Position numbers and translations under genes: made by a program. This document shows positions 5,783 to 44,155 of a DNA stretch of 44,155 nt, piece after piece. The notes beneath the pieces are model-generated. The model was not told where the DNA came from and ran no database searches. It saw only the letters and a program-made list of their open reading frames with translations. Origin of the DNA: Chiloscyllium plagiosum (Eukaryota); the NCBI RefSeq assembly GCF_004010195.1, contig NC_057751.1:4435246-4479400 (forward strand). The letters are read 5' to 3'. Each line of letters begins with the position of its first letter. Positions within the stretch are counted from its first letter, which is position 1.

Positions 5783-5809
5783 CGGAGCACACCCGAAGCG
5801 GACAGCGCC
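5783..5809 (+). promoter_or_regulatory. Candidate split RE1/NRSE in the NEFL 5' UTR
   Basis: Perfect right half GGACAGCGCC (5800-5809). Degenerate left half CGGAGCACA (5783-5791) with an 8-nt spacer. Confidence 0.45.
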
Positions 5810-5819
5810 AGCACCAGCC

Positions 5820-6845
5820 ATGAGCACCGCGAGCTACGAGTCGTACTTCCACAGGAGGCGCTATGGAGACAGCGCGGCGCCCAGGAGCTATGGAGCTGTC
5901 CAGCATTTCAGGAGCAACTTCGGAGGCAATGTCAAAGCGGTCTACAGCTCTTACTCCAGCCCGGCCTTCACCGCTAGGAAGGCCCACAGCATCTCGTCCG
6001 CCCTGGACACCTTCGACCTGAGCCAGGCGAGCGCCGTGAGCAGCGAGTTCAAGGCGGTGCGGACCCAGGAGAAGGCGCAGCTGCAGGAGCTGAACGACCG
6101 CTTCGCCAACTTCATCGAGAAGGTGCACGAACTGGAGCAGCAGAACAAGGTGCTGGAGGCCGAGCTCTCCCTGCTCCGCCAGAAGCAGGGCGGCCCGTCC
6201 CGCCTCAAGGGCATCTACGAGCAGGAGCTGCGGGAGCTGAGGCTGGCGCTGGACGACGCCCGCCACGAAAGGCAGGCGGCGCAGAACGAGCGGGACCACC
6301 TGGAGGACAGCCTGAAGAACCTGCAGGCTCGCTACGAGGAGGAGCTGCTGAACCGGGAGGACGCCGAGGGCCGCCTGATGGAAGCCAGGAAGGGCTCGGA
6401 CGAGGCGGCGCTGGCCAGGGCCGAGGTGGACAAGCGGATCGAGAGCCTGATGGACGAAATCGCCTTCCTGAAGAAAATCCACGAGGAGGAGATCGCCGAG
6501 CTGCAGGCTCAGGTGCAGTACGCCCAGGTGTCGGTGGAAGTGGACATGGGCAAGCCGGACCTCTCCTCTGCCCTGAGGGAGATCCGCTGCCAGTACGAGA
6601 AGGTGGCGGCCAAGAACATGCAGTCGGCCGAAGACTGGTACAAGAGCCGCTTTGCCGTGCTGGCCGAGAACGCCTCCAAGGACAGCGACGCGACCAGGCA
6701 AGCCCGGGACGAGGTGATCGAGTACCGGCGCCAGGTCAAAGCCAAGACCCTGGAGATCGATGGCGTCCGGGGAATGAACGACGCCCTGGAGAGGCAACTG
6801 CTGGAACTGGATGAGAAACAGGGAGGCGAGATCAGTGCCCTACAG
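5820..6845 (+). CDS. NEFL: Neurofilament light chain, exon 1 (head and most of rod, 342 codons)
   Basis: The ATG is in gccATG context. MSTASYESY... head, then DLSQ...[36 protein letters not shown]. Ends CAG|gtaagg, phase 0. Confidence 0.97.
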
Positions 6846-7089
6846 GTAAGGGGAGGGCGGAGGGGGCACACAGGTTCACCGAGAGAGTGATACACACAAC
6901 ACTCAAGGAGGGTGTGTGTGTGTGTGTGACACACTGACAGGACACAGGCACCTAGCCAATAGAGCCGAAACCTTCGCGCTTTTGGGAGGCAGAGTTACAA
7001 GGGATGAGAAAGGGTAACGGGGTGGGGTCACTGACCATCTTTCTCTCTATTTCCCTCCCCCCTCCCACCCCTCCATCCCATTCCCACAG

Positions 7090-7214
7090 GATGCCATTAG
7101 CCAGCTGGAGAATGAGCTGAGAACCACCAAGAATGAGATGGGCCGCTACCTGAAAGAATACCAGGATCTCCTGAACGTGAAGATGGCCCTGGACATTGAG
7201 ATCGCGGCGTACAG
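7090..7214 (+). CDS. NEFL: Neurofilament light chain, exon 2 (125 bp)
   Basis: cccacag|GAT GCC...; [44 protein letters not shown]|gtaagg. Not present in the ORF track. Confidence 0.97.
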
Positions 7215-8112
7215 GTAAGGAGTGACACCGGGAGAGGCCGCTGGAAACTCCCGAGAGCTGGGAATGTTCCCTCCCTGGGCGGACCGAGTGCCATGCGCCC
7301 TTTCACTCCAGAGCTGAGCCCCCCACCCAGTGACCGAGCGGCTCCTCCCCCTCCCCCAGCCCTGCATTGCACCAGTTGGGTGTGGCACAGGGTGGAGTAT
7401 AACTCCGGTCTGGCGCAGTCTTTCTGCAATCCTCGGCCTGGGCCAAGTATCTGTCTCAGCTTTTACAAGAGGACAGACCTGCAGGTTGAAAGATACAATT
7501 TCATTCGGGAAGGAGAGGTTTGGGATGGGCTGGGGGGGTGGTGCAAGACAGAGGCTAAGAGGACGTGATAGCCTCAATGCGTCAGATACAGGTTTACCTC
7601 TACTGTCACACACTACAACAGCTCCCCACCCCACCCACCCCCCACTCCCCATCATTCCCAACACTGATCCCTGTATCGGCCTTTCTCCCAACAGTGTCCA
7701 TTGGGTTTCAGAGGGGACAGGATTTGCGGAGTGTCTTTTGGAGGGGTTTTGTTCGTGAACAGCGAGAGCTAATGCCGTGAACAGAGTTAAAACTGACATT
7801 GGATACGGGTCAGTTCCACAATCAAAATACACCGAGTGTTTCCTGCGTAGAAAGCACATTCACCGGCGTAAGGACATCTCAAAAGGAAATCAAATGTAGA
7901 TGTTCATGCACAAGAATAAAATCTGCATTGCAGGGCTCCTGGGAAAGAGCAAGGGATTGACCCCCTTACTAAGCATTGGCATAGGCAGACAGGGCCAAAT
8001 CTTTGCACAAAGCCCGGAGGATTAAAAGGTAACAAGGTGCCAACACCTCGGAGCTGCAGTGCAGGTTGGGGAATGATCTTATCGTTGTTGTCCCTTTCTG
8101 TTCCGTTCTCAG

Positions 8113-8375
8113 GAAACTGCTGGAGGGAGAGGAAACACGCATCACCTACACCAACGTGGGCAGCATGATCAGCGGCTACTCTCAGACTGCTGCCGCCCCG
8201 GTGTATAGCCGCTCCAGCTACTCCCTTCAGAGTAGCGCGTACGGCCTGTCCAGCAGAGCCGGCCTGTACAGCTCCTATCCCAGCAGCAGCCAGGTGGAGG
8301 AGGAGCTGGTTCAGCAGACCCGCTCATTGGCTGCGCAGCTCCAACCTCCAGCAGACAAGGCGGAAGACATGGAAG
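8113..8375 (+). CDS. NEFL: Neurofilament light chain, exon 3 (rod end and tail a)
   Basis: ttctcag|G AAA CTG CTG GAG; KLLEGEETR...YSQTAAAPVYSRSSYSLQSSAY; ends GAA G|gtaaga, phase 1. Confidence 0.95.
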
Positions 8376-8664
8376 GTAAGAACCTCTCACCAGGCCAGCC
8401 GTTCTCTAAACCAGGTGCCAACTCAATGACTGGCACAACTGGGAGCCAGAAGGGATGGTCTTGAAGTGGCATTGGAGGGTGCCACTCCCACAGCAGGAAC
8501 TGGGCAGGGACCAGGTCTCAAATGAAATGTGAAACTCAGGTTCTTTCGAGTCCTGTGGCAGACATGAAAGGAAATGCCCCATTGGTCTTTCATAAGAGAT
8601 CAGGGCTACTTTCAGTCCTCTCCAGGGCCGAGATCTATCTCACAACAAGAACCATTGATACAGT

Positions 8665-9100
8665 CACAGAATCATAGAGATATACAACATGGAAACAGAC
8701 CCTTCGGTTCAACATATCCATGCTGACCAGAGAACCCGATCTAGTCCCACCTGCCAGCACTTGGCCCATATCCCTCCAAACCCTTCCTATTCATATACCC
8801 ATCCAGATGCCTTTAAAATGCTGTAATTGTACCTGCCTCCATCACTTCCTCAGGCAGCTCATTCCATACACATACCACCCTCTGTGTGTGAAGAAGTTGC
8901 CCCTTAGGTCTCTTTTATATCTTTCCCCTCTCACTCTAAACCTATGCCCCTCTGATTCTGGATTCCATTTGGCCCATATCCCACTAAACCTTACCTGTTC
9001 AAATTTTTTAAAAATCTTCTAATTGTACCTGCATCTACCACTTCCTCTGGCAGTTCATTCCATGTACAAATGACCCTGTGTGAAAAGTTGTGCCTCCCCA
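8665..9100 (-). mobile_element. Two tandem CR1 3'-end fragments in NEFL intron 3
   Basis: Reverse complement of the CR1 3' end. The block ttggcccatatccc...gtgaa-aagttg occurs twice (about 8757-8900 and 8966-9090). Confidence 0.85.
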
Positions 9101-9346
9101 ACCCAGTCCACAACAAAGCAAAGGTCAGGTTTAAACTGTAAGCATGTTTCCATGCTGTATATCTCTATGACTCTGTGACTGTATCAATGGTTCTTGTTGT
9201 GATGCTGTTTATGTTGTTGGGCACCAACGTTGACTCTCATGTGTTCATGATCTTCTGTCTGCAATGCAGTCTTCATTTAGACAATGCAATCTTCAGAGGG
9301 AACATGCTTTGCACCAAAATTCTATCTTGATTTTTTGAATTTGCAG

Positions 9347-9588
9347 GTGAAGAGGGGGAAGGAGGAGAAGAAAATGGTGAAGAGGCAGAAGCAAAGGAGA
9401 ATGGAGAGGAAGAGGAGGAAAAGGAAAATGGAGAGGAGGCAGATGAGGAAAAGGAAGATGAGGAGGAGGAGAGCGAGGAAGGAGGTGAGGCTGAAGGAGA
9501 GAAGAAAGAGGAAGAAGAGAGTGAGAAACAGGAAGAAACTGAAGAAAAAGGAAATGATGCTGATAAACAGAGTGCAGAAAAGAAGTAG
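9347..9588 (+). CDS. NEFL: Neurofilament light chain, exon 4 (Glu-rich tail b, TAG stop)
   Basis: tttgcag|GT GAA GAG...; GEEGEGGEENGEE...DADKQSAEKK*. The four exons total 1656 bp = 551 aa plus stop. Confidence 0.93.
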
Positions 9589-23278: not shown

Positions 23279-23591
23279 CTTTCAATGCAACCTCTTTGTG
23301 GACTCGGGTTTTACCGATTGTAACTCAGCTGCGATAGGGGAAATAGACCGGGTCAAAGTATCCTTACAGCAGCATGTCACCACAATCGGAAAATGTCTCT
23401 TCCTGCTCACCTCTCTCTGTGAGTGGGGGTCCTTGTGTCCGCCTCCATTCTTCCCCACCCTATCACTTGCTGCTGGACTTACAGAGACCAGAGAGGCGGC
23501 CCGGGACCATTCCCCAGGATTCAGCGGGGCAGTGAATTGGACCGGGAATTCACAGGAAAAGAGAACCCGTTTGGGAGCACATCCAAATTCA

Positions 23592-23844
23592 GGGAGACGA
23601 GAAGAAACCTGCCAAATCTGGGTCAGGGTTGGGGGCGCCTGCGCAGACGTAGAGAGAGGGATGAGGGCGCGGCCCCTTTAAATGCTGCGGCTCCCAGCGA
23701 AAGTCCATCGAGTCCCAGAGACAGAATGCAGCATTGTGGGGAGACGAGAAGAAACCTGCCAAATCTGGGTCAGGGTTGGGGGCGCCTGCGCAGACGTAGA
23801 GAGAGGGATGAGGGCGCGGCCCAGAGACAGAATGCAGCATTGTG
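23592..23844 (+). repeat. Tandem duplication (147 bp + 106 bp) with a 41-bp deletion in the second copy
   Basis: An 84-bp block is identical at 23592-23675 and 23739-23822. A 22-bp block is identical at 23717-23738 and 23823-23844. Confidence 0.95.
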
Positions 23845-25324: not shown

Positions 25325-25598
25325 TTCGAATCATACAATCACCACAGTGCGGAAAAAAAGGCCATTTTGGTCCAACAGGTCCATACTGACCCTCCGCAGT
25401 GTGTCTGGCCCGCTCAGACCCACCCCCCTTCCCAATTGCTCTATATTTCCCCTGACGAACGCACCTTTCCTACGCACCCCTGAGCACTGTGGGCAAGTTA
25501 GCACGGCCGAATCGCCTAACCTGTCCATCTTTGGACTGTGAGAGGAAACCGGAGCACCCGGAGGAAACCCACGCAGACACGGGGAGAATGTGCAAAAC
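25325..25598 (-). mobile_element. HE1-like V-SINE, 5'-truncated
   Basis: catctttggactgtgagaggaaaccggagcacccggaggaaacccacgcagacacggggagaatgtgcaaa is a V-domain matching 20105-20180. Confidence 0.85.
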
Positions 25599-26382
25599 TA
25601 CTGCAGTGTTCCGCGTCCCCCTCACTGAACACCACTGCGGGACAAGCAGGGAACCGATAGCCGACAGTTCTGAACCTATAAGTGCCAATGGGAGAGCAAT
25701 TACCTTTGGGAGCCTTTGCACAATTGCCGTATATCGCCCTCCCACCCCACCCCGACCCCTCCCTCCGTGAAAGTGTGCGAGCGCTGAAGTGCGGTGCATC
25801 AATGTATTTCCTCTTGAGTAGTTTGACCCTCTCTGGTTTGGAGCAGTGTGCTTTGATCAAAGTTGAAAGCTTTCCTTTCTGAGTGGCCCCTGGGACACGG
25901 CCGGATGTATAGGAGTTGACAGGAGCGCCGCTGGGAATCCTAATAGGTTCTCCAGGCTGGTTTATGTTGGGGAGGGCTGGGTGGTGGTGGTGGGATGCGG
26001 CGGTGTTTTGGAGGGTCTGCAAGTGATTCGACTCGAGCCCAGCTGGTTCCGCGGCCCTATGTAACTCACCGAAGGCCGGAAGCAAAGCTTTCAGCTCTCC
26101 CCGCCAGGGCTGTCTTTTCTTCGTGTGAGACTCGGTCTCGGTCAGCGCTGCCGGTTGGTGGCGTTGCGAACTGACTGTTCCTAAGAACTCCCGCCCAGTA
26201 GTTTAACGATCAAGGTGACTGGGCGCTTTGCTTAACCGGTTGACTCCAGGCTTCAAGACCAGCTGGGAGCACCAGTCCTGCACTGCGGTTGCACGGCCCT
26301 GAATGGGCTGCGACTTTTGACGTCCCCCCCTCGCCCCACCCAAGCAGTCCCTGAGCCAGAGCCTGGCCCCAGTTCAGGGACG

Positions 26383-26449
26383 GGAGCTGTCCGGGCGCGT
26401 GTGGTGCTGAACCTACACCGCGCCTCTGTCCAGCGCGGGGAGTGCTGAA
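26383..26449 (-). promoter_or_regulatory. Tandem pair of long-spacer (non-canonical) RE1/NRSE sites
   Basis: Minus strand: TTCAGCACT-N9-GGACAGAGGC (26449-26422) and TTCAGCACC-N10-GGACAGCTCC (26411-26383). Confidence 0.7.
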
Positions 26450-27588
26450 AACGCCGCGTCGCATGGAGGCTTTTGGTTTGAATGACAGGGAGGGCCCATT
26501 CTTAAAAGAAAACGCTGCGTCAACCTGAAGCCCAGTGTGTCTCCTGCACACATGTGCAGCACCAACATATTAGGACCCACACCCGAATTTAACTCTCTCA
26601 CACGATACTGACTACATACCCACTCCTCACCTCTGTAAGGCGTTGTGGCCCTGAAGCAGTTAATTCTGTGTCGATTCGTGTTTTTCTGCTGCATCAACAG
26701 CCTGCAGTTTCACACCAGCTGTCTCACTATCCCCCCCCCACCCTCCCGCCAAAGAGCTGCGGGAATCGGCAGACTTGTTAAAGAGAGCTGGGTGTGATTC
26801 TTAATTACATTTGCACCGAAAAGATCTGAGTCAACCGGAAGGAAATTAGAACTTCACAATGACCCAGTTTACAAATTGTGACTAGCTTCGGGAATGTGTT
26901 CCAGGTCACAGTTTGATGTCGCGACACCATATCATTATATATTGCTGATTGACACAATGCTGACGGAAAGTGAAGTGGCAAAAGTTGTGCTGAAATGCTT
27001 GAAAAGGCAGGGTGGAGGGGAGGTGAAACTTGAATTATTTTAACTATTATTATATTGGAATGCCGCTCATTGCTTATCCCAAAAAAAAAACACAGCGGCA
27101 ACTAGAGCTAGAACGACGTTCTTTCCCGCTGACCAAACCTTGAGTACGGCATTGCCAAGAGAATCAGATTCACTTCAGTTAACCCAGCATGCAAAACAAA
27201 ACGAGAAGTGTACCTTGACGCACATGTCCACAAGCTTTTCGGCGGCACCCAAGTGTCAGAGGTGAAAAGTCCGACCTTGCATGTAGCCATTTTCAAAATT
27301 TGGCACCCAAATTTTATTTGGAATCACCTCAAACATAAGAAGGTGAGTAGACTGGTCAAAACATCCAAACCATGATTTGGCAGCATTGGATATTAATCGC
27401 ACTCAAGGGAATAGGATTGTTCCAGAGATTGCACACAAAATAGGAGCCTCTCCCTTTCCTAATGGTGTCTCAATTAAATTCATCCAAAGGCTAAAAGATA
27501 TTCATGAGTCAACAAGATCCCACCGCATCCTCCCTCCTCCACATTTATTTGAAAGAATAAATCAGACATTAAGATTCAGAATATGACT

Positions 27589-27594
27589 TTTATT
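27589..27594 (-). terminator. NEFM polyadenylation signal (alternatives at 27783-27788 and 27544-27549)
   Basis: AATAAA on the minus strand about 540 nt after the stop codon. Confidence 0.65.
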
Positions 27595-28131
27595 CAGCAA
27601 ATACTGCAGTGAAGTTGCACATGGGGTGATACAGTGTGACGTGTTGGTGAATGATCAGTAAACCCTCCCTCCCACCAATGGAAGTCCATTTTAAAAGCAC
27701 TCGTGAGGTAAACATAGATTAATCAATGAGCAGTTTAAGGCTAAGGATTTTTTTATAGTTTTTTTCAAACTTTTTGGCTCAGTTTATTCTTTGCATAATA
27801 CATCTCTAGACTTTCTCAAAAGCGCCCCTCCGACAGCTCACAACCTTTCTTCAGCATATTGCTATTTGTCACGATTTGGTGCATATGTCTTCCATGCAAT
27901 TAAGTTGTTCAGTTGTGTTCTATTTTGTCCTTTCAGTGGTTCCTTGTATTTCAGCACTGTGGAGGGCACCTTTTTAAACTTGCATGCAGTTTCTTCTATT
28001 GCACAAAAGGAAAAGACGAGAAGTCTGGAGCTCCTCAACGGAGAACCCACTCTGCTCAAGGCCAGAAAAGCTGTCACACCCATGCATCTTTAGCTGTCAA
28101 ATGTCATCCCCTTTGCTTCATGAGGTTGTCT

Positions 28132-29332
28132 TCACTCATGATCCTCCTCCTTCTTTATGACTGAGTGTGAGGTTTTCTCCACCGTCTTAGTAGACACTAT
28201 CGTCTCCTGGACCACCTCTTCTGTCTCCTCCATTGTCTGAGTTACCGTGACAGATTTGGTGATCTCCTTGATGTGTTTGGTCATCCCGTCATCATCATCA
28301 ATGACCTTCTGGATAGTCTTTGTTGCAGTCTTCATGTGGGAGATGATGTCAGAGTCCTCCTCCTTTGTGGGACTCTGGTCAACCCCATTGGAAATGATTT
28401 GCGGCTCTTCCTCCTTGTCCTTGGTGTCATCCCCTTTCTCTTCAATCTCTCCATTGATGGTTGTGCCTTCATCTTTTGACTTGGCTTCATCTTTTGACTT
28501 GGCTTCATCCTTTGACTTGACTTCATCCTTCTTTTCCTCAGCTTCTGGGGATTTCTCTTCTTTTGGTGATTTGACCTCCACTTCTATTTTGGCTTCCTCT
28601 TTCTGTGGTGATTTGACATCGGTTCCTGCCTCCTTGCCCCCATCAACTGTGTCGACCTTTTTCTCAGAAACGACCTTCTTATCGACTGCTTCCTCACTCT
28701 TCTTAGCATCTTCCTCTGCTCCTTCCTCTCCATTTTCTGTGGCTGTCTTTTCAGGCTCTTCACCAGCTTCTTCTTTCTTGGTGACTTCTTCCTCTTCCTC
28801 CTCCTCCTCACTTGCTTCCTTCCCCTGCTCCTCTGGCACAGCTTTTGATTCCTCCACCTTCACGCTTTCAATCTTCTCCTCGGCTTCAGTTTCTTCTGCC
28901 CCTTCCTGCTCCCCTTCTGCCTGGACAGCATCACCTTCTCTTTCACCTCTCTCTTCTTCTTCTTTTTCCTCCTCCTCTTCTTCCTCCTTCTTTTCCTCAC
29001 CCTTTTTTTCTGGTTGAGCCTGGACTGCAGTCTTGACTGTGGCCACAATGACCTCTTCCACTGCTTCCTCTTCCTCGGCTATGGCTTCACCCGCAGCCTT
29101 TTCCACTGCCTCAGATAGGTTCAGCTCCCCCAGTTCCGCTTTCTCGTCCTCCACTTTGGTTTCTTCAATGATCTCTTCCACGAATTTATGCTGCACTTTC
29201 ATCTTGGGGGCTTCTTTGGTTTTCTGCACTTTAGCGGGGGCTGTGGGCGTGCTCGGGGGTCGATAGGGGAAAGAGGGACCAGTGATGCTTCCAGAGAAAA
29301 TATACCTGGATTCTTCACCTTCCAACAGTTTC
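28132..29332 (-). CDS. NEFM: Neurofilament medium chain, exon 3 (rod end and tail, TGA stop)
   Basis: ctgtgcag|[48 protein letters not shown], Glu-rich segment, KSP motifs, and the NF-M-type C-terminus ITKSVTVTQ...VSTKTVEK. Confidence 0.97.
28467..28530 (-). repeat. 18-bp coding tandem repeat, about 3.5 copies (KSKDEA)
   Basis: The + strand unit cttcatc(t/c)tttgacttg(g/a) starts at 28467, 28485, 28503 and 28521 (partial). Confidence 0.9.
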
Positions 29333-30104
29333 CTGCACAGGGGTGGGGGGTGGGGAGAGACCGAGGGAGAGGTAGAGAAGACAGCTGTTATTAAACCCTT
29401 ACAATGGAATGAAGGATAGGCACCAGGAGCAGAAGAGGAGACTACATTACTTACTGAGCGTATTATTGCCTGGAAAGGGTCCTATGTAGTTTTGGGAGGA
29501 ACAGTCTCTTCCTGTGCTGTTAGATTCGCCAGTTGTATGACACCATTGCCCGTTACTGGGGCAAGAACGCCATCAGCCCATGGGAGGCTCCGAAGGGAGT
29601 GCCCCCCCAGAACAGAGCCATGGTTTGCATTGATCAGAGGCTGGAAAGGGCTTGGGGGGGGGGGTGGGGGGTGGGGGTGTTGTAGGGCAAGGGAATGGGA
29701 GCAGACTCAGAGAGAGCAACAGAGTGGTCAGAGATGGCTTCACATGATGGACTGGGCGGCACCACTCCCCAACCCCTCAGATCATGGCTGGGGGTGGGTT
29801 AACAGACTCGCTCGCTGCCGAGTGGCCTCAGCTATTTCAGGCAAAGGCGGTTGCCCTCCTTTGACGCGGGGTTTCAACTGACCGCACTGGAGCCGCACAG
29901 AGAAAGACCAGCCGTGCACCCACCCCCCTGTCCTGCTGCAGCCTCGGGTGGGGAGGGGGGGGGGTGTAAGGGAGGGCTCCCTGTGCCGCACTCCCATTGA
30001 GGACCCCCTCAATGTCACGCAATGGCTTGGTTTTTTTGTCCTCCCTGGAGGTGTCGCCACACCCTCCGCCCCTCTGGGACCCCCCCCCCCCCCCCCCCAG
30101 TTAC

Positions 30105-30229
30105 CTGTAAGCAGCAATCTCGATATCCAAAGCCATTTTCACGTTTAATAAATCTTGGTATTCCCGCAGGTGACGGGCCATTTCCCACTTGGTGTTGCGC
30201 AGCTCATTCTCCAGCTGTTGGACTGTTTC
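30105..30229 (-). CDS. NEFM: Neurofilament medium chain, exon 2 (125 bp)
   Basis: ttttag|[53 protein letters not shown]|gtaact. Not present in the ORF track. Confidence 0.97.
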
Positions 30230-30597
30230 CTAAAATGTTTCCCAGACACAGAGAGAGAGAGAGAGGAAACTCATCAGTAAACCGCCGGAGAGACACCCTC
30301 CAGGCCACAATGACAAGCGGGTTCCGGGACCGGAGAGTTCCCTGAGCTGGGCAGCTTTGGAGGACAGTTTCCCAAATCCTGCCCGGGCACGGGCGCTCCT
30401 GCTCCCGCGGGCACGCCCCAGCCACTTCCCCGCTCGTCCTCAGCCGAGCCCGAAGGTTCGACAACGGCAGGCGGACAGCGCGACACTTCAGGCGGGCACA
30501 CACCCAGCCCCCTGTCCCCGCTCCCGCCCCTTACCGAGGCGCTAAGATCGAAACGCGAGGGAGGCGGGGAATGGACCACTTCGGAGAGAGCTGGGGA

Positions 30598-30760
30598 AGA
30601 GAGACACACACACACACACAGAGCCACCCACAGAGAGAGAGACAGAGTGAGGCAGAGAGATAGAGAAACACACACAGAAAGAAACAGACAAAGAGAGAGA
30701 GATACAGAGAGACAGATAGTGATAGACAGACAGAGAAATAGACAGAGAGTGAGAGAGAGA
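30598..30760. repeat. Compound (CA)n/(GA)n/(GACA)n microsatellite in NEFM intron 1, next to an assembly gap
   Basis: Seen directly in the sequence. Confidence 0.9.
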
Positions 30761-31027
30761 NNNNNNNNNNNNNNNNNNNNNNNNNNNNNNNNNNNNNNNN
30801 NNNNNNNNNNNNNNNNNNNNNNNNNNNNNNNNNNNNNNNNNNNNNNNNNNNNNNNNNNNNNNNNNNNNNNNNNNNNNNNNNNNNNNNNNNNNNNNNNNNN
30901 NNNNNNNNNNNNNNNNCTGGTGGGAGGGGGTGGGGTGGGGGGGAATGGTGGGGAGATGCTGGAGGTCGGGGCAGGGGCTTGGAGAGGGAGCCCAGGGGCG
31001 GTCTTGGGGCGGCGGGGAGCTGCTGAC

Positions 31028-32068
31028 CTGGTAGTTGGACACATCGGCGTTGTGGCGGTCCTCGATGTCGCTGATCTGCCTCTCCAGGGACTCCTTGGTG
31101 CCCCGGACCGACTCCAGCTCGATGCACTTGGACTGCAGTTGGCGGCGGTACTCATTGATCTCCTCCCGGGCCGAGCGGATCGCGTCCTTGTTGAGCTCGG
31201 CCGCCTCGTTCAGCTTGGCGTAGCGGCACTGGAACCACTCTTCGGTCTGCTGCAGGTTCTTGGTCGAGTGGCCCTCAAGCTGCGAGCGGATCTCCTTCAG
31301 CGCCGAGCTCAGGTCGCCCTTGAGCGGTTCCTTGCGCTCCAGCGTGACCTGGGACGCCTGGATCTGGGCGAAGAGTTCGGCCAGCTCCTCCTCGTGGTTG
31401 GCCCGGAGGAAGGCGAGCTCCTCTTGCAGGGACTGAGCTTTCTTCTCCATCTCCAGCTTGATGAGCGCCGACTCCTCGGTCTCTTTCCGGAAGGCCCTGA
31501 CGTGAGCCTCGGTGTCGTCCCTCAGCCTGGCCTCATCCTCACAGCGTTCCCTGAGGCGCTGCAGGTCCTCCTCCAGGTGCTCGCTCTGCAGCTGCAGCAG
31601 CGCCTTGTCCTGGTTCACCTGCTCGATCAGGCTCCGCAGTTCCCTCAGCTCCTGCTCGTACACCTCCCCCAGCTGCCCGTGGCCGGCCTGCTTCTGCCGC
31701 TGAGCCTGAATCTCAGCTTCCAGCTCCTTGTTGTGCTGCTCCAGGTAGTGCACCTTGTCGATGTAGCCGGCGAAGCGGTCGTTCAGCCCCTGCAGCAGCT
31801 CCTTCTCGTTGCGGCTGCCGACGCCCCGGTAATCTCCGTTCAGACCGCTGGACTGACTCAGGTCCAGGCTCTCCGAGGAGCTGTAAGCGCGGGGAGCCTG
31901 CACCGCGCTCGCCAGGCGCCGGTAGGACGCCGAGGTGAGCACCGGCGCTGGTGCACTAACCCGAGACCACGGCTGAGGGCGAGAGGCGACCGCCCGGCTG
32001 CTGTAAGTCCGGCTCTCCAGCCTCCGGTAGGAGGAAGGACTGCTCACCGTCTCTAGGATGTAGCTCAT
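31028..32068 (-). CDS. NEFM: Neurofilament medium chain, exon 1 (347 codons)
   Basis: aag[19 protein letters not shown]...[12 protein letters not shown]...[34 protein letters not shown]; ends CAG|gtcagc. The three exons total 2367 bp = 788 aa plus stop. Confidence 0.97.
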
Positions 32069-33075: not shown

Positions 33076-34129
33076 GTGTANNNNNNNNNNNNNNNNNNNN
33101 NNNNNNNNNNNNNNNNNNNNNNNNNNNNNNNNNNNNNNNNNNNNNNNNNNNNNNNNNNNNNNNNNNNNNNNNNNNNNNNNNNNNNNNNNNNNNNNNNNNN
33201 NNNNNNNNNNNNNNNNNNNNNNNNNNNNNNNNNNNNNNNNNNNNNNNNNNNNNNNNNNNNNNNNNNNNNNNNNNNNNNNNNNNNNNNNNNNNNNNNNNNN
33301 NNNNNNNNNNNNNNNNNNNNNNNNNNNNNNNNNNCCCGACTTGTGGGACTATATGTGGGGAGGCAGATGTGTGTTGAGGCGTGGAGGTTAATGGGGGGGA
33401 GGGAGGTTTGGGGTTGTGTCTGTGTTGGAGGTGGAGGGAGGGGTGTGAGTCGCTCCGTTCCTTTCAAACGCCAGGTTCACAATGCGACAAAGTTCTCCAC
33501 CTCCTCAGTGTGTGAGTGAGCAGCTCAGCACCATCAGGGTGCGTGTGTATGTCTGTGAGACCCCCTTCCCCCTCCCCCACCGCCACTTCAGGGAGTAGCC
33601 TGTTGGCCAGACGAGCATCCTGAGTGAATCTCCCCTCCCCCAGCCCTGCCGGACTCGGGCGGTGCTGAAACACTTCCTGATGCAATGCAGCGGAGACGGG
33701 GAGGGGAACAAATCAGACAGAACTCAGCTCCCTGAAAGCAGGGAGTGTTACCAGAGGGAATGTTCACTCCCCCCTTCCCCCCAGGGTCTGCGGGGGGACT
33801 GGGGAATGCTAACACAGGCTGCAGCTCCGAGCTGAGCCCGTTCAGTCCGATCCAGTGGCATTGCAGTATTTTGCTGAGTCATCTCTCACTGCTGGCGCGA
33901 ACAAAGTTATTTTCGCTTTTCATAAAGGATGAAGAGAGAAAGCAAGGGGAAAAGAAATAAACCCATACAAGATCATGACAGGGTCACTTTCCGTGTCATT
34001 ATAAATCTGTGTGAGATTGTTTCAGTCACTTTCAAGTGACAGCAAATTCTCACTCGGGACTCCGATATTGCCATCCTCTTGCTCTGTGTATCTTTCCCAT
34101 TTGCTCTCTCTCCATTTTCTTGGAGGACA

Positions 34130-35539: not shown

Positions 35540-35656
35540 TCGGAGAAAGTGGCGGCTGCAGAGGCTGGAGAGGCTGGTGCTGGAAAAGCACAGCCGGCCG
35601 GGCAGCATCCCAGGAGCTGGAGAATTGACGTCTCGGGCATAATCCCTTCATCAGGA
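35540..35656 (-). mobile_element. Penelope-derived arm with decayed hammerhead-like motif
   Basis: Minus strand: TC-CTGATGA-A-GGGA-TTAT-GCCC-GAGA-CG-TC-AATT, followed by the common tail. Confidence 0.7.
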
Positions 35657-38511: not shown

Positions 38512-41134
38512 GCCCCTCAAAGATCAGCAAGGTGGCCTTTTTTTGGAACTGCAGGAGATGGGGGGGATACTGAACGAGTATTTTGCATTAGTATTTACTG
38601 TGGAAAAGCACATAGAAAAAATAGGATGTAGGAAAATAGATGGTGACATCTTTAAAAATGTCCAGATTACAGAGGAGGAAGTGCCGGATGTCTTGAAATG
38701 CATAAAAGTGGATAAATCCCCAGGACCTTATCAAGTGTATCCTAGAACTCTGTGGGAAGCTAGGCAAGTGATTGCTGGGCCTCTTACTTAGATATTGGTA
38801 TCAGCGATAGTCACAGGTGAGGTGCCGGAAGACTGGAGGTTGGCTGACGTGGTGCCACTGTTTAAGAAGGGTGGTAAGGACAAGCCAGGGAACTATAGAC
38901 TGGTGAGCCTGACATCAGTGGTGGGCAAGTTGTTAAGGGAATCCTGAGGGACAGGATGTCCATGTATTTGGAAAGGCAAGGACTGATTAGGGATAGTCAG
39001 CATGGCTTTGTGCATGGGAAATCATGTCTCACAAACTTGATTAGATATTGGTATCAGCGATAGTCACAGGTGAGGTGCCAGAAGATTTTGAAGAAGTAAC
39101 AAAGAGGATTGATGAGGGCAGAGCGGTAGATGTGATCGATATGGACTTCAGTAAAGTGCTTGACAAGGTTCTCCATGGGAGACTTGGTTAGCAAGGTTAG
39201 AACTCACGGAGTACAGGGCGAACTAGCCATTTGGATACAGAATTGGCTCAAAGGTAGAAGACAGAGAGTGGTGGTGGTAGTGGAGGGTTGTTTTTCAGAC
39301 TGGAAGCCTGTGACAAGTGGAGTGCCACAAGGATCAATACTGGGTCACTACTTTTCATCATTTATATAAATGATTTAGATGAGAGCATAAGAGGTATAGT
39401 CAGTAAGTTTGCAGATGACACCAAAATTGGAGATGTAGTGGACAGCGAAGAGGGTTATCTCAGATTACAACAGGATCTTGATCAGATGGGCCAATGGGCT
39501 GAGAAGTGGCAGATGGAGTTTACTTCAGATAAATGCCAGTTGCTGCATTTGGGAAAGCAAATCTTGGCAGGACTTATACACTTAAGGGTAAGGTCCAAGG
39601 GAGTGTTGCATGAAGTGCATGACATGCAGGTTAATAGCTCCTTGAAAGTGGAGTCACAGGTAGATAGGATTGTGAAGATATTGGTCAGAGTATTGAGTAC
39701 AAGAGTTGGGAGGTCATGTTGCGGCTGTACAGGACATTGGTTCGGCCACTGTTGGAATATTGCGTGCAGTTCTGGTCTCCTTCCTATCAGAAAGATGTTG
39801 TGAAACTTGAAAGGGTTCAGAAAAGATTTACGAGGATGTTGCCAGGGTTGGAGGATTTGAGCTATAGGGAGAGGCTGAACAGGCTGGGGCTGTTTTCCCT
39901 GGAGCGTCGGAGACTGAGGGGTGACCTTATAATAGGTTTACAAAATTATGAGGGGCATGGATAGGATAAATAGACAAAGTCTTTTCTCTGGGGTCGGGGA
40001 GTCCAGAACTAGAGGGCATAGGCTTAGGGTGAGAGGGGAAAGATATAAAAGAGACTTAAGGGGCAACTTTTTCACGCAGAGGGTGAAATGTGTATGGAAT
40101 GAGCTGCCAGAGGAAGTGGTGGAGGCTGGTACAATTGCAACATTTAAGAGGCATTTGGATGGGTATATGAATAGGAAGGGTTTGGAGGGATATGGGCCGG
40201 GTGCTGGCAGGTGGGACTAGATTGGGTTGGGATATCTGGTCGGCATGGACGGGTTGGACCGAAGGGTCTGTTTCCGTGCTGTACATCTCTATGATTCTAT
40301 GACTAAGTCGGGAGCTTTGCGTTTCTTGAATGGCCTCACTGATGTGCAACACCGCTTTGAGTATCGTCCCCAATCACTCCTCCAGTTCTTTCACTTCACT
40401 GCAACATTTGTGGTCTTCTTAATCTTCCGACGAAAAGGCAGCCACTCAAATTTCTAAGTACTGTAATTGCATAGCTGTTTGGCCAGTTGGGCACACTAAG
40501 AATGCAGGCAAATTGGCTCCGAGTGAAGATATTTCTGACTCCATTTTACGACCTGGTTTATTGGTCATGGCTCACGTATCCAGAAGTAATGATATCTCTC
40601 TTTCAAAGTGAATTGGCACAGTGACTGCTGCATGATAATTAGTGAGATTTTGGCTGGTAGGAACTCTGTTACTGATGACACTTAGGAGTAAAACGTCTCA
40701 CACATTCAGTTTAAACATTACAATCTTCAATAAAACACACAGAGGCACGGATTCTGTCTGTCTGTCTGTCTGTCTCGCTCTCTTTTTATCTTTTGAACAT
40801 CCAAACATCCTTGCACCCAACTTGTCACAGAGCTCCTTATCCAGCTGCATTCCAAGCTGATGTGTTATGATCTCATCGCAATGTATCCTTCAGCAATTCT
40901 GCAATGCACTGTGATACACTGAAACTCCCATTTCACTGCAACTGAAAGACTTTTAGTGTTAAATCAATGTTCAGCTGCAGTGAAAAAAAAATACAGACAA
41001 CAACTGGGCATCGCTGTCCAAAGTGCTGCAAGTGTCTAACAGGTCATTGAAAAACTCAATCGCTAAGATTTTTGGAGACTAATTTCTGCCAATAATTGGT
41101 GCCAGTTTGCAATGTTTATTTTCACACAATCACA

Positions 41135-42860: not shown

Positions 42861-43076
42861 CCTGATGCAGAATACAGTGTCCCACACCAACACTCTGCTC
42901 ATCTGACCCATCGCCTGCTGTCTCTTTGTGAGATTTAGAAGTGCTGGTCATTTGAGCAGAGTGTAGTGTTTTTAACAAGGTCAGCCAGAGGGACCTTCGA
43001 GAATCTGAGTTCCATGATAGGGGCCATTGACCTGGTCCAATCGGGGAGCCCTGGCTGACAGATTAAAAACAGGAGT

Positions 43077-44155
43077 TTTCGCGACGTTCCGCCTTCAGAC
43101 CTTGCAGCGATACCTTTACGTCGAGCCTCCTCCTAGGTGGTGCGCCCTGGCGATGTATTTTTTCCGCCAGGTGCATAACCTCAACTACGACATGTAGCTC
43201 CTGTTCGTCGACCGTGACGGTTTGGAGGTCGCCCTCAAGACGCTGCCTGTCTTTTACCAGGACCTGATCACTGTCTGGAACATGGTCGAGTCACGCCACG
43301 CCTACCCTCCGGCTGGAGTAGCGGCTGTCGTCAGGGAGCCGTTGCTCAGGAATCCGTACCTCCATACTCGCGGGTTCGAGTGGCTGTCGGAGGGGAGGGC
43401 CGCGGCGGCGAGGGTGACCAGGGTCGGGGACGTGCTGGGTGCCGGGGGCCTGGGCTGGACGCTGCTGCAGGACATAGCGAGCAGGGCAGCGGTAGACGTC
43501 TGGTAAATGGCCACCGCCATCCGACGCCTTAAAACAGCGGTGCTCAGACCCGACATAGTGCACCAGTTGGAGGACGCTCAGGTGTGCGGTGGGATACCGT
43601 CCGCGCTCACCCCAGCCCGGACGGAATTTCACATTGGCCCCAAGGTCCCGTACTTCCCGCGGGAGTCTGTGCCCCACAACCTGAGCCGCCTCTGAAATTT
43701 TAATTTTGCTTTGTTTAGGGAGGTGAAGAGAAAGGCCCTGTATCGACTGCTGCTGCACACCATCCACCTCTTCTCCCTCATCCACCGTCCGGACACGCCT
43801 TGGCGTCCCCATTTGCCACCGGGCGGTGGGGATCCCCAGTGGAGGGCTCTCTACACGGGAGTCCTCCCCCTTTCTCTCGGGGATCTGGGGTGGAGGGTGC
43901 TGCACGCAGCAGCCCCCTGCAACCGCAGATTGCGGTGGTTCACGGACTCCCAGCCCAACTGCTTGTTCTGTGGCGCTGTGGAGTCCGTGGACCACGTGTA
44001 TATTGGGTGTGGGCGTTTGCACTCCCTTTTTGATTTTCTGAAAAACCTTCTCCTCTGCTTTTGGCTGCACTTCAGTCCCACGCTCCTGATCTTTGGGCAC
44101 CCAGTACGGAGGAAGGAGGGCAGGTCTGAAGACCCCCTCGTGGGTCTGCTCCTGG
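43077..44155 (+). mobile_element. Tx1-like (L1 clade) retrotransposon, 3' part of ORF2, 5'-truncated and pseudogenised, runs off the window end
   Basis: Reads FRLQTLQRYLY, LPVFYQDLITVW, EPLLRNP, then DLGWRVLH...CLFCGAVESVDHVYIGC (C-terminal CCHC zinc knuckle). There are in-frame stops and an abrupt rise in GC/CpG. Confidence 0.85.

Follow-up and report, generated by a model that had tools for sequence, protein, structure and literature searches.

A putative tandem RE1/NRSE element with expanded gaps downstream of NEFM in the shark Chiloscyllium plagiosum

The intergenic DNA between the neurofilament genes NEFM and NEFL of C. plagiosum carries two gapped RE1/NRSE-like units in tandem. They probably constitute a non-canonical RE1 silencer that is occupied by at most two REST molecules, in progenitors as well as in non-neuronal cells, and that acts mainly on NEFM. 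REST silences through its corepressors. This reading draws on comparison with published REST sites and on direct observations of the motif anatomy, its excess over chance, its single-copy context, a CpG peak and the identities of the neighbouring genes within the window, i.e. the whole analysed stretch of 44,155 bp. The element is a likely REST silencer of a kind that is invisible to fixed-length matrix scans, located in a cartilaginous fish beside one of the classic REST targets, and it suggests that a gapped, two-molecule mode of REST binding is in use across jawed vertebrates.

Anatomy of the element and length of its gaps

On the minus strand, positions 26383-26449 read as left half, 9 bp, right half, 10 bp, left half, 10 bp and right half (Table 1). 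The pitch of the units is 38 bp from left half to left half and 39 bp from right half to right half. Lying head to tail on the same strand and less than 100 bp apart, they form a tandem RE1 array in the sense of PMC1557810, where at least two sites head to tail within 100 bp define such an array. The left core CAGCAC and the right core GGACAG are intact in both units (no core mismatches), with left before right on one strand. Half-sites were scored as letter matches to the consensus printed in PMC3529185, and not with a matrix; the 9-bp unit agrees with it at 16/19 letters and the 10-bp unit at 18/19. One consensus miss in the 9-bp unit falls on position 9, which in gapped REST sites is barely conserved or not read (PMC8096226). 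Unit 2 can alternatively be read with a gap of 7 bp, at the cost of one mismatch in the cores. GCGCG is present in each spacer, and on the plus strand the word AC(A/G)CCGC follows both units, at offsets 3 and 1.

Table 1 Positions of the tandem element, its genomic neighbours and further RE1-like sites in the window
Feature	Position	Strand	Remarks
Unit 1, putative gapped RE1	26422-26449	-	left half 26441-26449, 9-bp gap, right half 26422-26431
Linker between units	26412-26421	-	10 bp, from sequence reading
Unit 2, putative gapped RE1	26383-26411	-	left half 26403-26411, 10-bp gap, right half 26383-26392
CpG-rich intergenic patch	25500-26550		element at its NEFM-side edge; from CpG counts in 200-bp windows
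NEFM coding span	28132-32068	-	three exons; nearest gene; best named matches of first exon are shark/ray NEFM, 68-77% identity
NEFL-like coding span	5820-9588	+	convergent with NEFM; Filament and Filament_head domains; best atlas cluster neurofilament light-like
Consensus RE1 right half (5800-5809) with weak left half 8 bp upstream	5783-5809	+	between NEFL TATA-like box and start codon
Canonical-gap RE1-like site	41010-41030	-	both cores intact, weak at position 9 and both ends; about 9 kb upstream of NEFM
Lone RE1 left half	33661-33669	-	about 1.4-1.5 kb upstream of NEFM, without convincing right half
Lone RE1 left half	33524-33532	+	about 1.4-1.5 kb upstream of NEFM, without convincing right half
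Lone left half near NEFM 3' end	26987-26994	-	run X9 of related organism B has a 9-base deletion here, unlike at the tandem pair
Lone left half near NEFM 3' end	27950-27970	+	

The first-pass annotation of this DNA had reported two split REST motifs of the same orientation, 38 bp apart and with N10 and N9 spacers, together with the two shared words; coordinates, gaps and words were all verified. It had also predicted that the pair would escape a standard scan. Neither unit has the 2-bp gap of a canonical RE1, and a canonical-gap scan with up to three mismatches listed neither of them, giving 7 matches elsewhere in the window against 5.0 expected. A gapped core pattern (1-20 free bases) matched twice in the 44,155 bases, and both matches are the units of the element. 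Dinucleotide shuffles (n=100) yielded a mean of 0.09 and a maximum of 1 match to this pattern, with two matches in 0/100. By a Markov estimate, 0.013 single units with a gap of 7-11 bp are expected per window; for independent tandem pairs the estimate is 1.2e-7, a figure that exaggerates the evidence should one unit be a copy of the other.

How REST reads gapped sites is described in PMC8096226: the left half is contacted by fingers 7-8 and the right half by fingers 3-5, long gaps are bridged with finger 6 flipped out, and the gaps seen by ChIP-nexus are 2 or 7-9 bp. Binding of REST to non-canonical gaps of 5-11 nt is reported in PMC2926608, along with binding of Fugu REST to a site with an 8-bp gap and the prediction of NRSEs in elephant shark; similar gap ranges are given in PMC2573930 and PMC4055426. 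In the reporter screen of PMC9903721, which uses the same half-site boundaries as this study, repression was obtained with 8- and 9-bp gaps only. The first-pass annotation had regarded both spacers as being of REST-binding size. This holds for binding as such, since gaps of 9 and 10 bp both lie inside the reported range (5-11 nt, with 11 bp bound at CELSR3) and beside a known REST target. It does not extend to silencing: the 9-bp unit is inside the 8-9 bp silencing range and the 7-9 bp ChIP-nexus range, and the 10-bp unit in its main register is outside both. Judged by sequence, the unit with the 9-bp gap is a gapped silencer motif of textbook form and the 10-bp unit is borderline.

These ranges bear on a reading that overlaps with the tandem silencer and is possible, if doubtful, namely that only the 9-bp unit silences, the 10-bp unit being a passenger or a half-site binder without repression. 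The 8-9 bp rule of the reporter screen (PMC9903721) and the ChIP-nexus gaps of 7-9 bp (PMC8096226) both favour it. However, the 10-bp unit has the better half-sites of the two, its 7-bp register fits as well, and the 11-bp-gap units of human CELSR3 were each shifted by REST in EMSA (PMC8096226). The 9+10 pair is a natural test case of whether tandem placement rescues long gaps, because 10-bp gaps in single sites fail in the human screen, whereas gaps of 11 bp both bind and matter in the CELSR3 tandem.

The NEFM-NEFL interval and its REST sites

The location of the element between NEFL and NEFM, as first annotated, was borne out by sequence and domain matches of the flanking genes. For the minus-strand gene an atlas search placed NEFM at rank 19, and its identity was settled by sequence search. 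The same convergent NEFM/NEFL gene pair occurs in frog (PMC4430910). The element is located 1.7 kb past the NEFM stop codon and probably outside the NEFM transcript, since it lies about 0.9 kb beyond the last of four polyadenylation-like hexamers (27313-27788). Its distance to the start region is 5.7 kb for NEFM and 20.6 kb for NEFL.

The element sits at the edge of the most CpG-rich part of the interval. Among 174 intergenic 200-bp windows, the three richest start at 26001, 26301 and 26101, with 14-16 CpG and an observed/expected ratio (o/e) of 0.71-0.92; the median window (n=174) has 2 CpG and an o/e of 0.30. As inferred from sequence, the patch is a possible candidate for an unmethylated enhancer or silencer. 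In ES cells, hypomethylation is seen at REST peaks (PMC4499139), and the CpG peak would fit a long-standing occupancy by REST; it is no proof of it, because repeat-like DNA at 43-44 kb is equally CpG-rich. That region (43000-44155) appears from its sequence to be a broken retroelement coding region and not a promoter. A second CpG-rich intergenic patch contains a near-exact local duplication of about 80 bases (23587-23720 and 23735-23825). With a consensus that we take to be that of CTCF, nine matches with up to two mismatches were found, one of them at 26259; their number is indistinguishable from chance and none in the patch is better.

Further RE1-like sites are listed in Table 1. The site at 5783-5809 is, by its sequence, a candidate NEFL-proximal REST site, and a canonical site holds a similar promoter-proximal place at frog nefl. 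In the readable sequence of the window no consensus canonical RE1 was seen near the NEFM or NEFL promoter; unread bases lie about 1 kb upstream of NEFM, at the position of the mammalian site. Should the shark promoters turn out to lack canonical sites, the locus would clearly exemplify a binding site that moved while its regulatory link persisted.

In other vertebrates the known sites are on the promoter side. The human peak table of PMC4055426 has a REST peak at the NEFM promoter in 16/16 cell types, with three more rows just beside it. This promoter peak is marked as conserved in mouse, and NEFM is bound by REST in mouse ES cells (PMC4499139). Canonical RE1s of mouse are located 879 bp 5' of Nef3 and 3,363 bp 5' of Nefl (PMC2573930), the Nefl site being labelled 3' proximal in one sheet of that source. 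A gapped human NEFM site was considered and dropped, because the mouse site is canonical. In frog, a canonical site lies 88 bp from nefl, in a screen that saw canonical sites only (PMC4430910).

The first-pass annotation had looked to REST peaks downstream of NEFM in human and mouse, and the tables give no support for such peaks. No peak between NEFM and NEFL is listed in the human table (PMC4055426), where row 28952 belongs to the region 5' of NEFM and the very next row, 28953, already to the NEFL promoter; this result depends on the rows being numbered without a break and sorted by coordinate. The mouse ChIP-PET tables (PMC2573930) likewise hold no cluster flanked by the Nefl and Nef3 pair. 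None of the entries listed in the reporter-screen tables (PMC9903721) falls in the human NEFM-NEFL interval, which is uninformative, as these tables exclude sites up to 5 kb upstream of starts. A conserved position of the site between the two genes in vertebrates is unsupported by the human and mouse peak tables. The exact bounds of the human NEFM and NEFL genes are those we assumed. Compared with the mammalian and frog RE1s of NEFM and NEFL, the shark element shares the targets and the repressor; the former are single sites with a 2-bp gap on the promoter side, none being listed between the genes.

The interval between two convergent, co-expressed genes could also host a common 3' regulatory hub, through which the REST pair would silence NEFL as well as NEFM; a silencer shared by both genes was suggested in the first-pass annotation. 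An RE1 at a distance need not act on the nearest gene (PMC9903721), several remote promoters are repressed by the gapped NRSE of the HS5-1 enhancer (PMC8096226), and the window shows no consensus canonical RE1 close to NEFL. We nonetheless consider such sharing unlikely: NEFL starts 20.6 kb away against 5.7 kb for NEFM, it carries a consensus right half of its own in the 5' leader, and both mouse and frog have a canonical site 5' of Nefl. A silencer acting mainly on NEFM is the reading we retain.

Origin of the two units and look-alike arrays

Aligned with each other, the units are identical at 14/14 core letters and at 13/22 of the other aligned letters, with three small gaps. The difference between core and non-core identity (Fisher p 0.005) is biased, since the units were picked for their match to the motif. 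Outside the half-sites the similarity is modest, with p values of 0.012, 0.038, 0.026 and 0.053 under four nulls, so that the old local duplication proposed in the first annotation is weakly supported (p 0.012-0.053). Identity concentrated in the cores is what one would expect of an ancient duplicate whose cores were retained by selection. Just at the element's end a 14-base direct repeat begins (26447-26460 and 26508-26521, 13/14 alike); its 26508-26521 copy contains a change in B, a related organism.

The contigs of organism B are about 93-96% alike to this part of the window, and two of three runs cover the element (run X12 does not). Among the listed changes, none falls in the 38 half-site bases and two fall in the 19 spacer bases (2/29 non-motif bases), at 26398 (spacer, in both runs) and at 26440 (spacer edge, in one run); 3/15 differences of the covering X11 contig are unplaced. 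None of the listed indels is in the element. The contrast between half-sites and non-motif bases has the right direction and is not significant (P 0.09-0.20 for 0/38; Fisher p 0.18), being based on one close relative and on a listing short of 50 substitution rows and 8 indel rows. Contigs of organism B break into unlike sequence at 26211 and at 26348-26367, one of them running into letters that resemble a repeat near 35570. From their sequence these breaks beside the element are possibly insertions, with the element itself retained.

Arrays that look alike were sought by a metagenome scan with a three-half-site pattern, which found at least 117 loci. Among the 117 loci listed, none is similar to the window (blastn) or to the two neurofilament proteins (tblastn). 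A fourth half-site is present in 14/117 of the listed loci, as part of plain 39-41 bp repeats in unrelated DNA. Two of these four-half-site loci, L037 and L021, are ordinary 39-bp repeats, which we read as plant-like DNA and as a 13-codon coding repeat, respectively; Pfam returned no family. Four-half-site arrays thus arise without REST, as look-alikes occur in plant-like and coding repeats. Their repeat units are alike along the whole length (35/39 and 36/39), whereas identity within the shark element is concentrated in the cores. On the window, Tandem Repeats Finder did not call the pair. L037 (3960-4080) shows how the duplication of 39 bp of plant-like DNA can pass for a tandem gapped RE1 whose gaps are 8 bp long (6/117 of the loci listed), and duplications of this type are a useful false positive for motif scans.

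Such repeats are the model for a neutral origin of the shark pair, in which a chance motif was doubled by a small local duplication and REST controls the locus from elsewhere. The duplication signal outside the cores and the duplicated look-alikes of plant-like and coding DNA are in keeping with it, as are the other candidate sites in the window and the unread bases about 1 kb upstream of NEFM, at the mammalian site position. A single unit is nevertheless expected only 0.013 times per window, the element adjoins a REST target within a CpG peak, and its units differ from the look-alikes in where their identity lies; we judge the neutral origin very unlikely.

The surrounding interval is rich in repeat remnants and includes a SINE-like piece at 25487-25596 (self-comparison). 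Over the element itself there were no repeat matches, and self-comparison of the window revealed no second copy. One contig of 3,683 bases from run X2 spans the part around the element, and no second contig of this run matches 26041-27300 at 80% likeness. The element is apparently single-copy, although an old and diverged repeat family could escape these comparisons. An import of the motifs by a transposable element, for which the RE1s carried in mammalian LINE2 and SINE copies (PMC1557810) and the remnant-rich interval would provide a setting, is most improbable given these results and the absence of Rfam matches in the window (0 RNA families).

Proposed mode of action and comparison with known REST sites

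For the tandem silencer we propose the following course. The pair would have arisen by local duplication and would then have been kept by selection on its cores. In progenitors and in non-neuronal cells, shark REST would sit on one unit or on both, the 9-bp unit serving as the main silencer and the 10-bp unit adding occupancy. REST bound there may work as it does at the HS5-1 site: it would damp a CpG-rich regulatory patch 3' of the gene, which would itself be in contact with the NEFM promoter, and thereby help to keep NEFM, the nearest gene, off outside neurons.

A wider proposal has two parts. The shark pair may take the place of the canonical RE1s that frog and mammals have on the promoter side, with site and binding mode changed and REST control of NEFM-NEFL kept; and the 38-39 bp pitch common to the shark element and CELSR3 may be a packing rule for two adjacent REST molecules, letting gaps of 10-11 bp work in tandem though they fail alone. 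We regard this combination, drawn from comparison of the sites, as quite unlikely. Support for a 39-bp packing rule from the metagenome was tried and rejected: a 39-bp period is found in 60/117 of the listed loci, but coding repeats explain it.

A paper on an element 3' of shark NEFM was not found in the open-access literature. The architecture itself has already been published for human CELSR3, of which, by comparison, the shark NEFM element is a further instance. According to PMC8096226, the CELSR3 array (left-11-right-9-left-11-right) binds two REST molecules. Similar to the shark element, the tandem NRSE in CELSR3 exon 1 consists of four half-sites in two gapped units, placed head to tail with a short linker at a neuronal gene, and its pitch, with halves assumed to be 9 and 10 bp wide, is 39 bp against 38-39 bp in the shark. 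The two differ in gaps (11 and 11 bp in CELSR3, 9 and 10 bp in the shark), linker (9 and 10 bp) and location (exon 1 and intergenic 3'), and binding was shown for CELSR3 and is predicted for the shark.

With the non-canonical RE1 class, as described in PMC9903721, PMC2926608, PMC2573930 and PMC4055426, the shark units share intact cores, canonical order and orientation and a longer gap, although the 10-bp-gap unit is outside the 8-9 bp silencing range of that class. The PCDH-alpha HS5-1 NRSE (8-bp gap; PMC8096226) is likewise gapped and located downstream of its target gene, possibly, as in the shark, in a distal regulatory patch. In contrast to the shark pair it is a single unit, and its enhancer activity and CTCF looping were shown, whereas enhancer activity of the shark patch is an inference. 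Lastly, 27 head-to-tail RE1 pairs within 100 bp, without fixed spacing, are described in PMC1557810, with tandem duplication proposed as their origin. The tandem RE1s of SNAP25 and L1CAM (PMC1557810) resemble the shark element in arrangement and proposed origin, and differ from it in having canonical 2-bp gaps.
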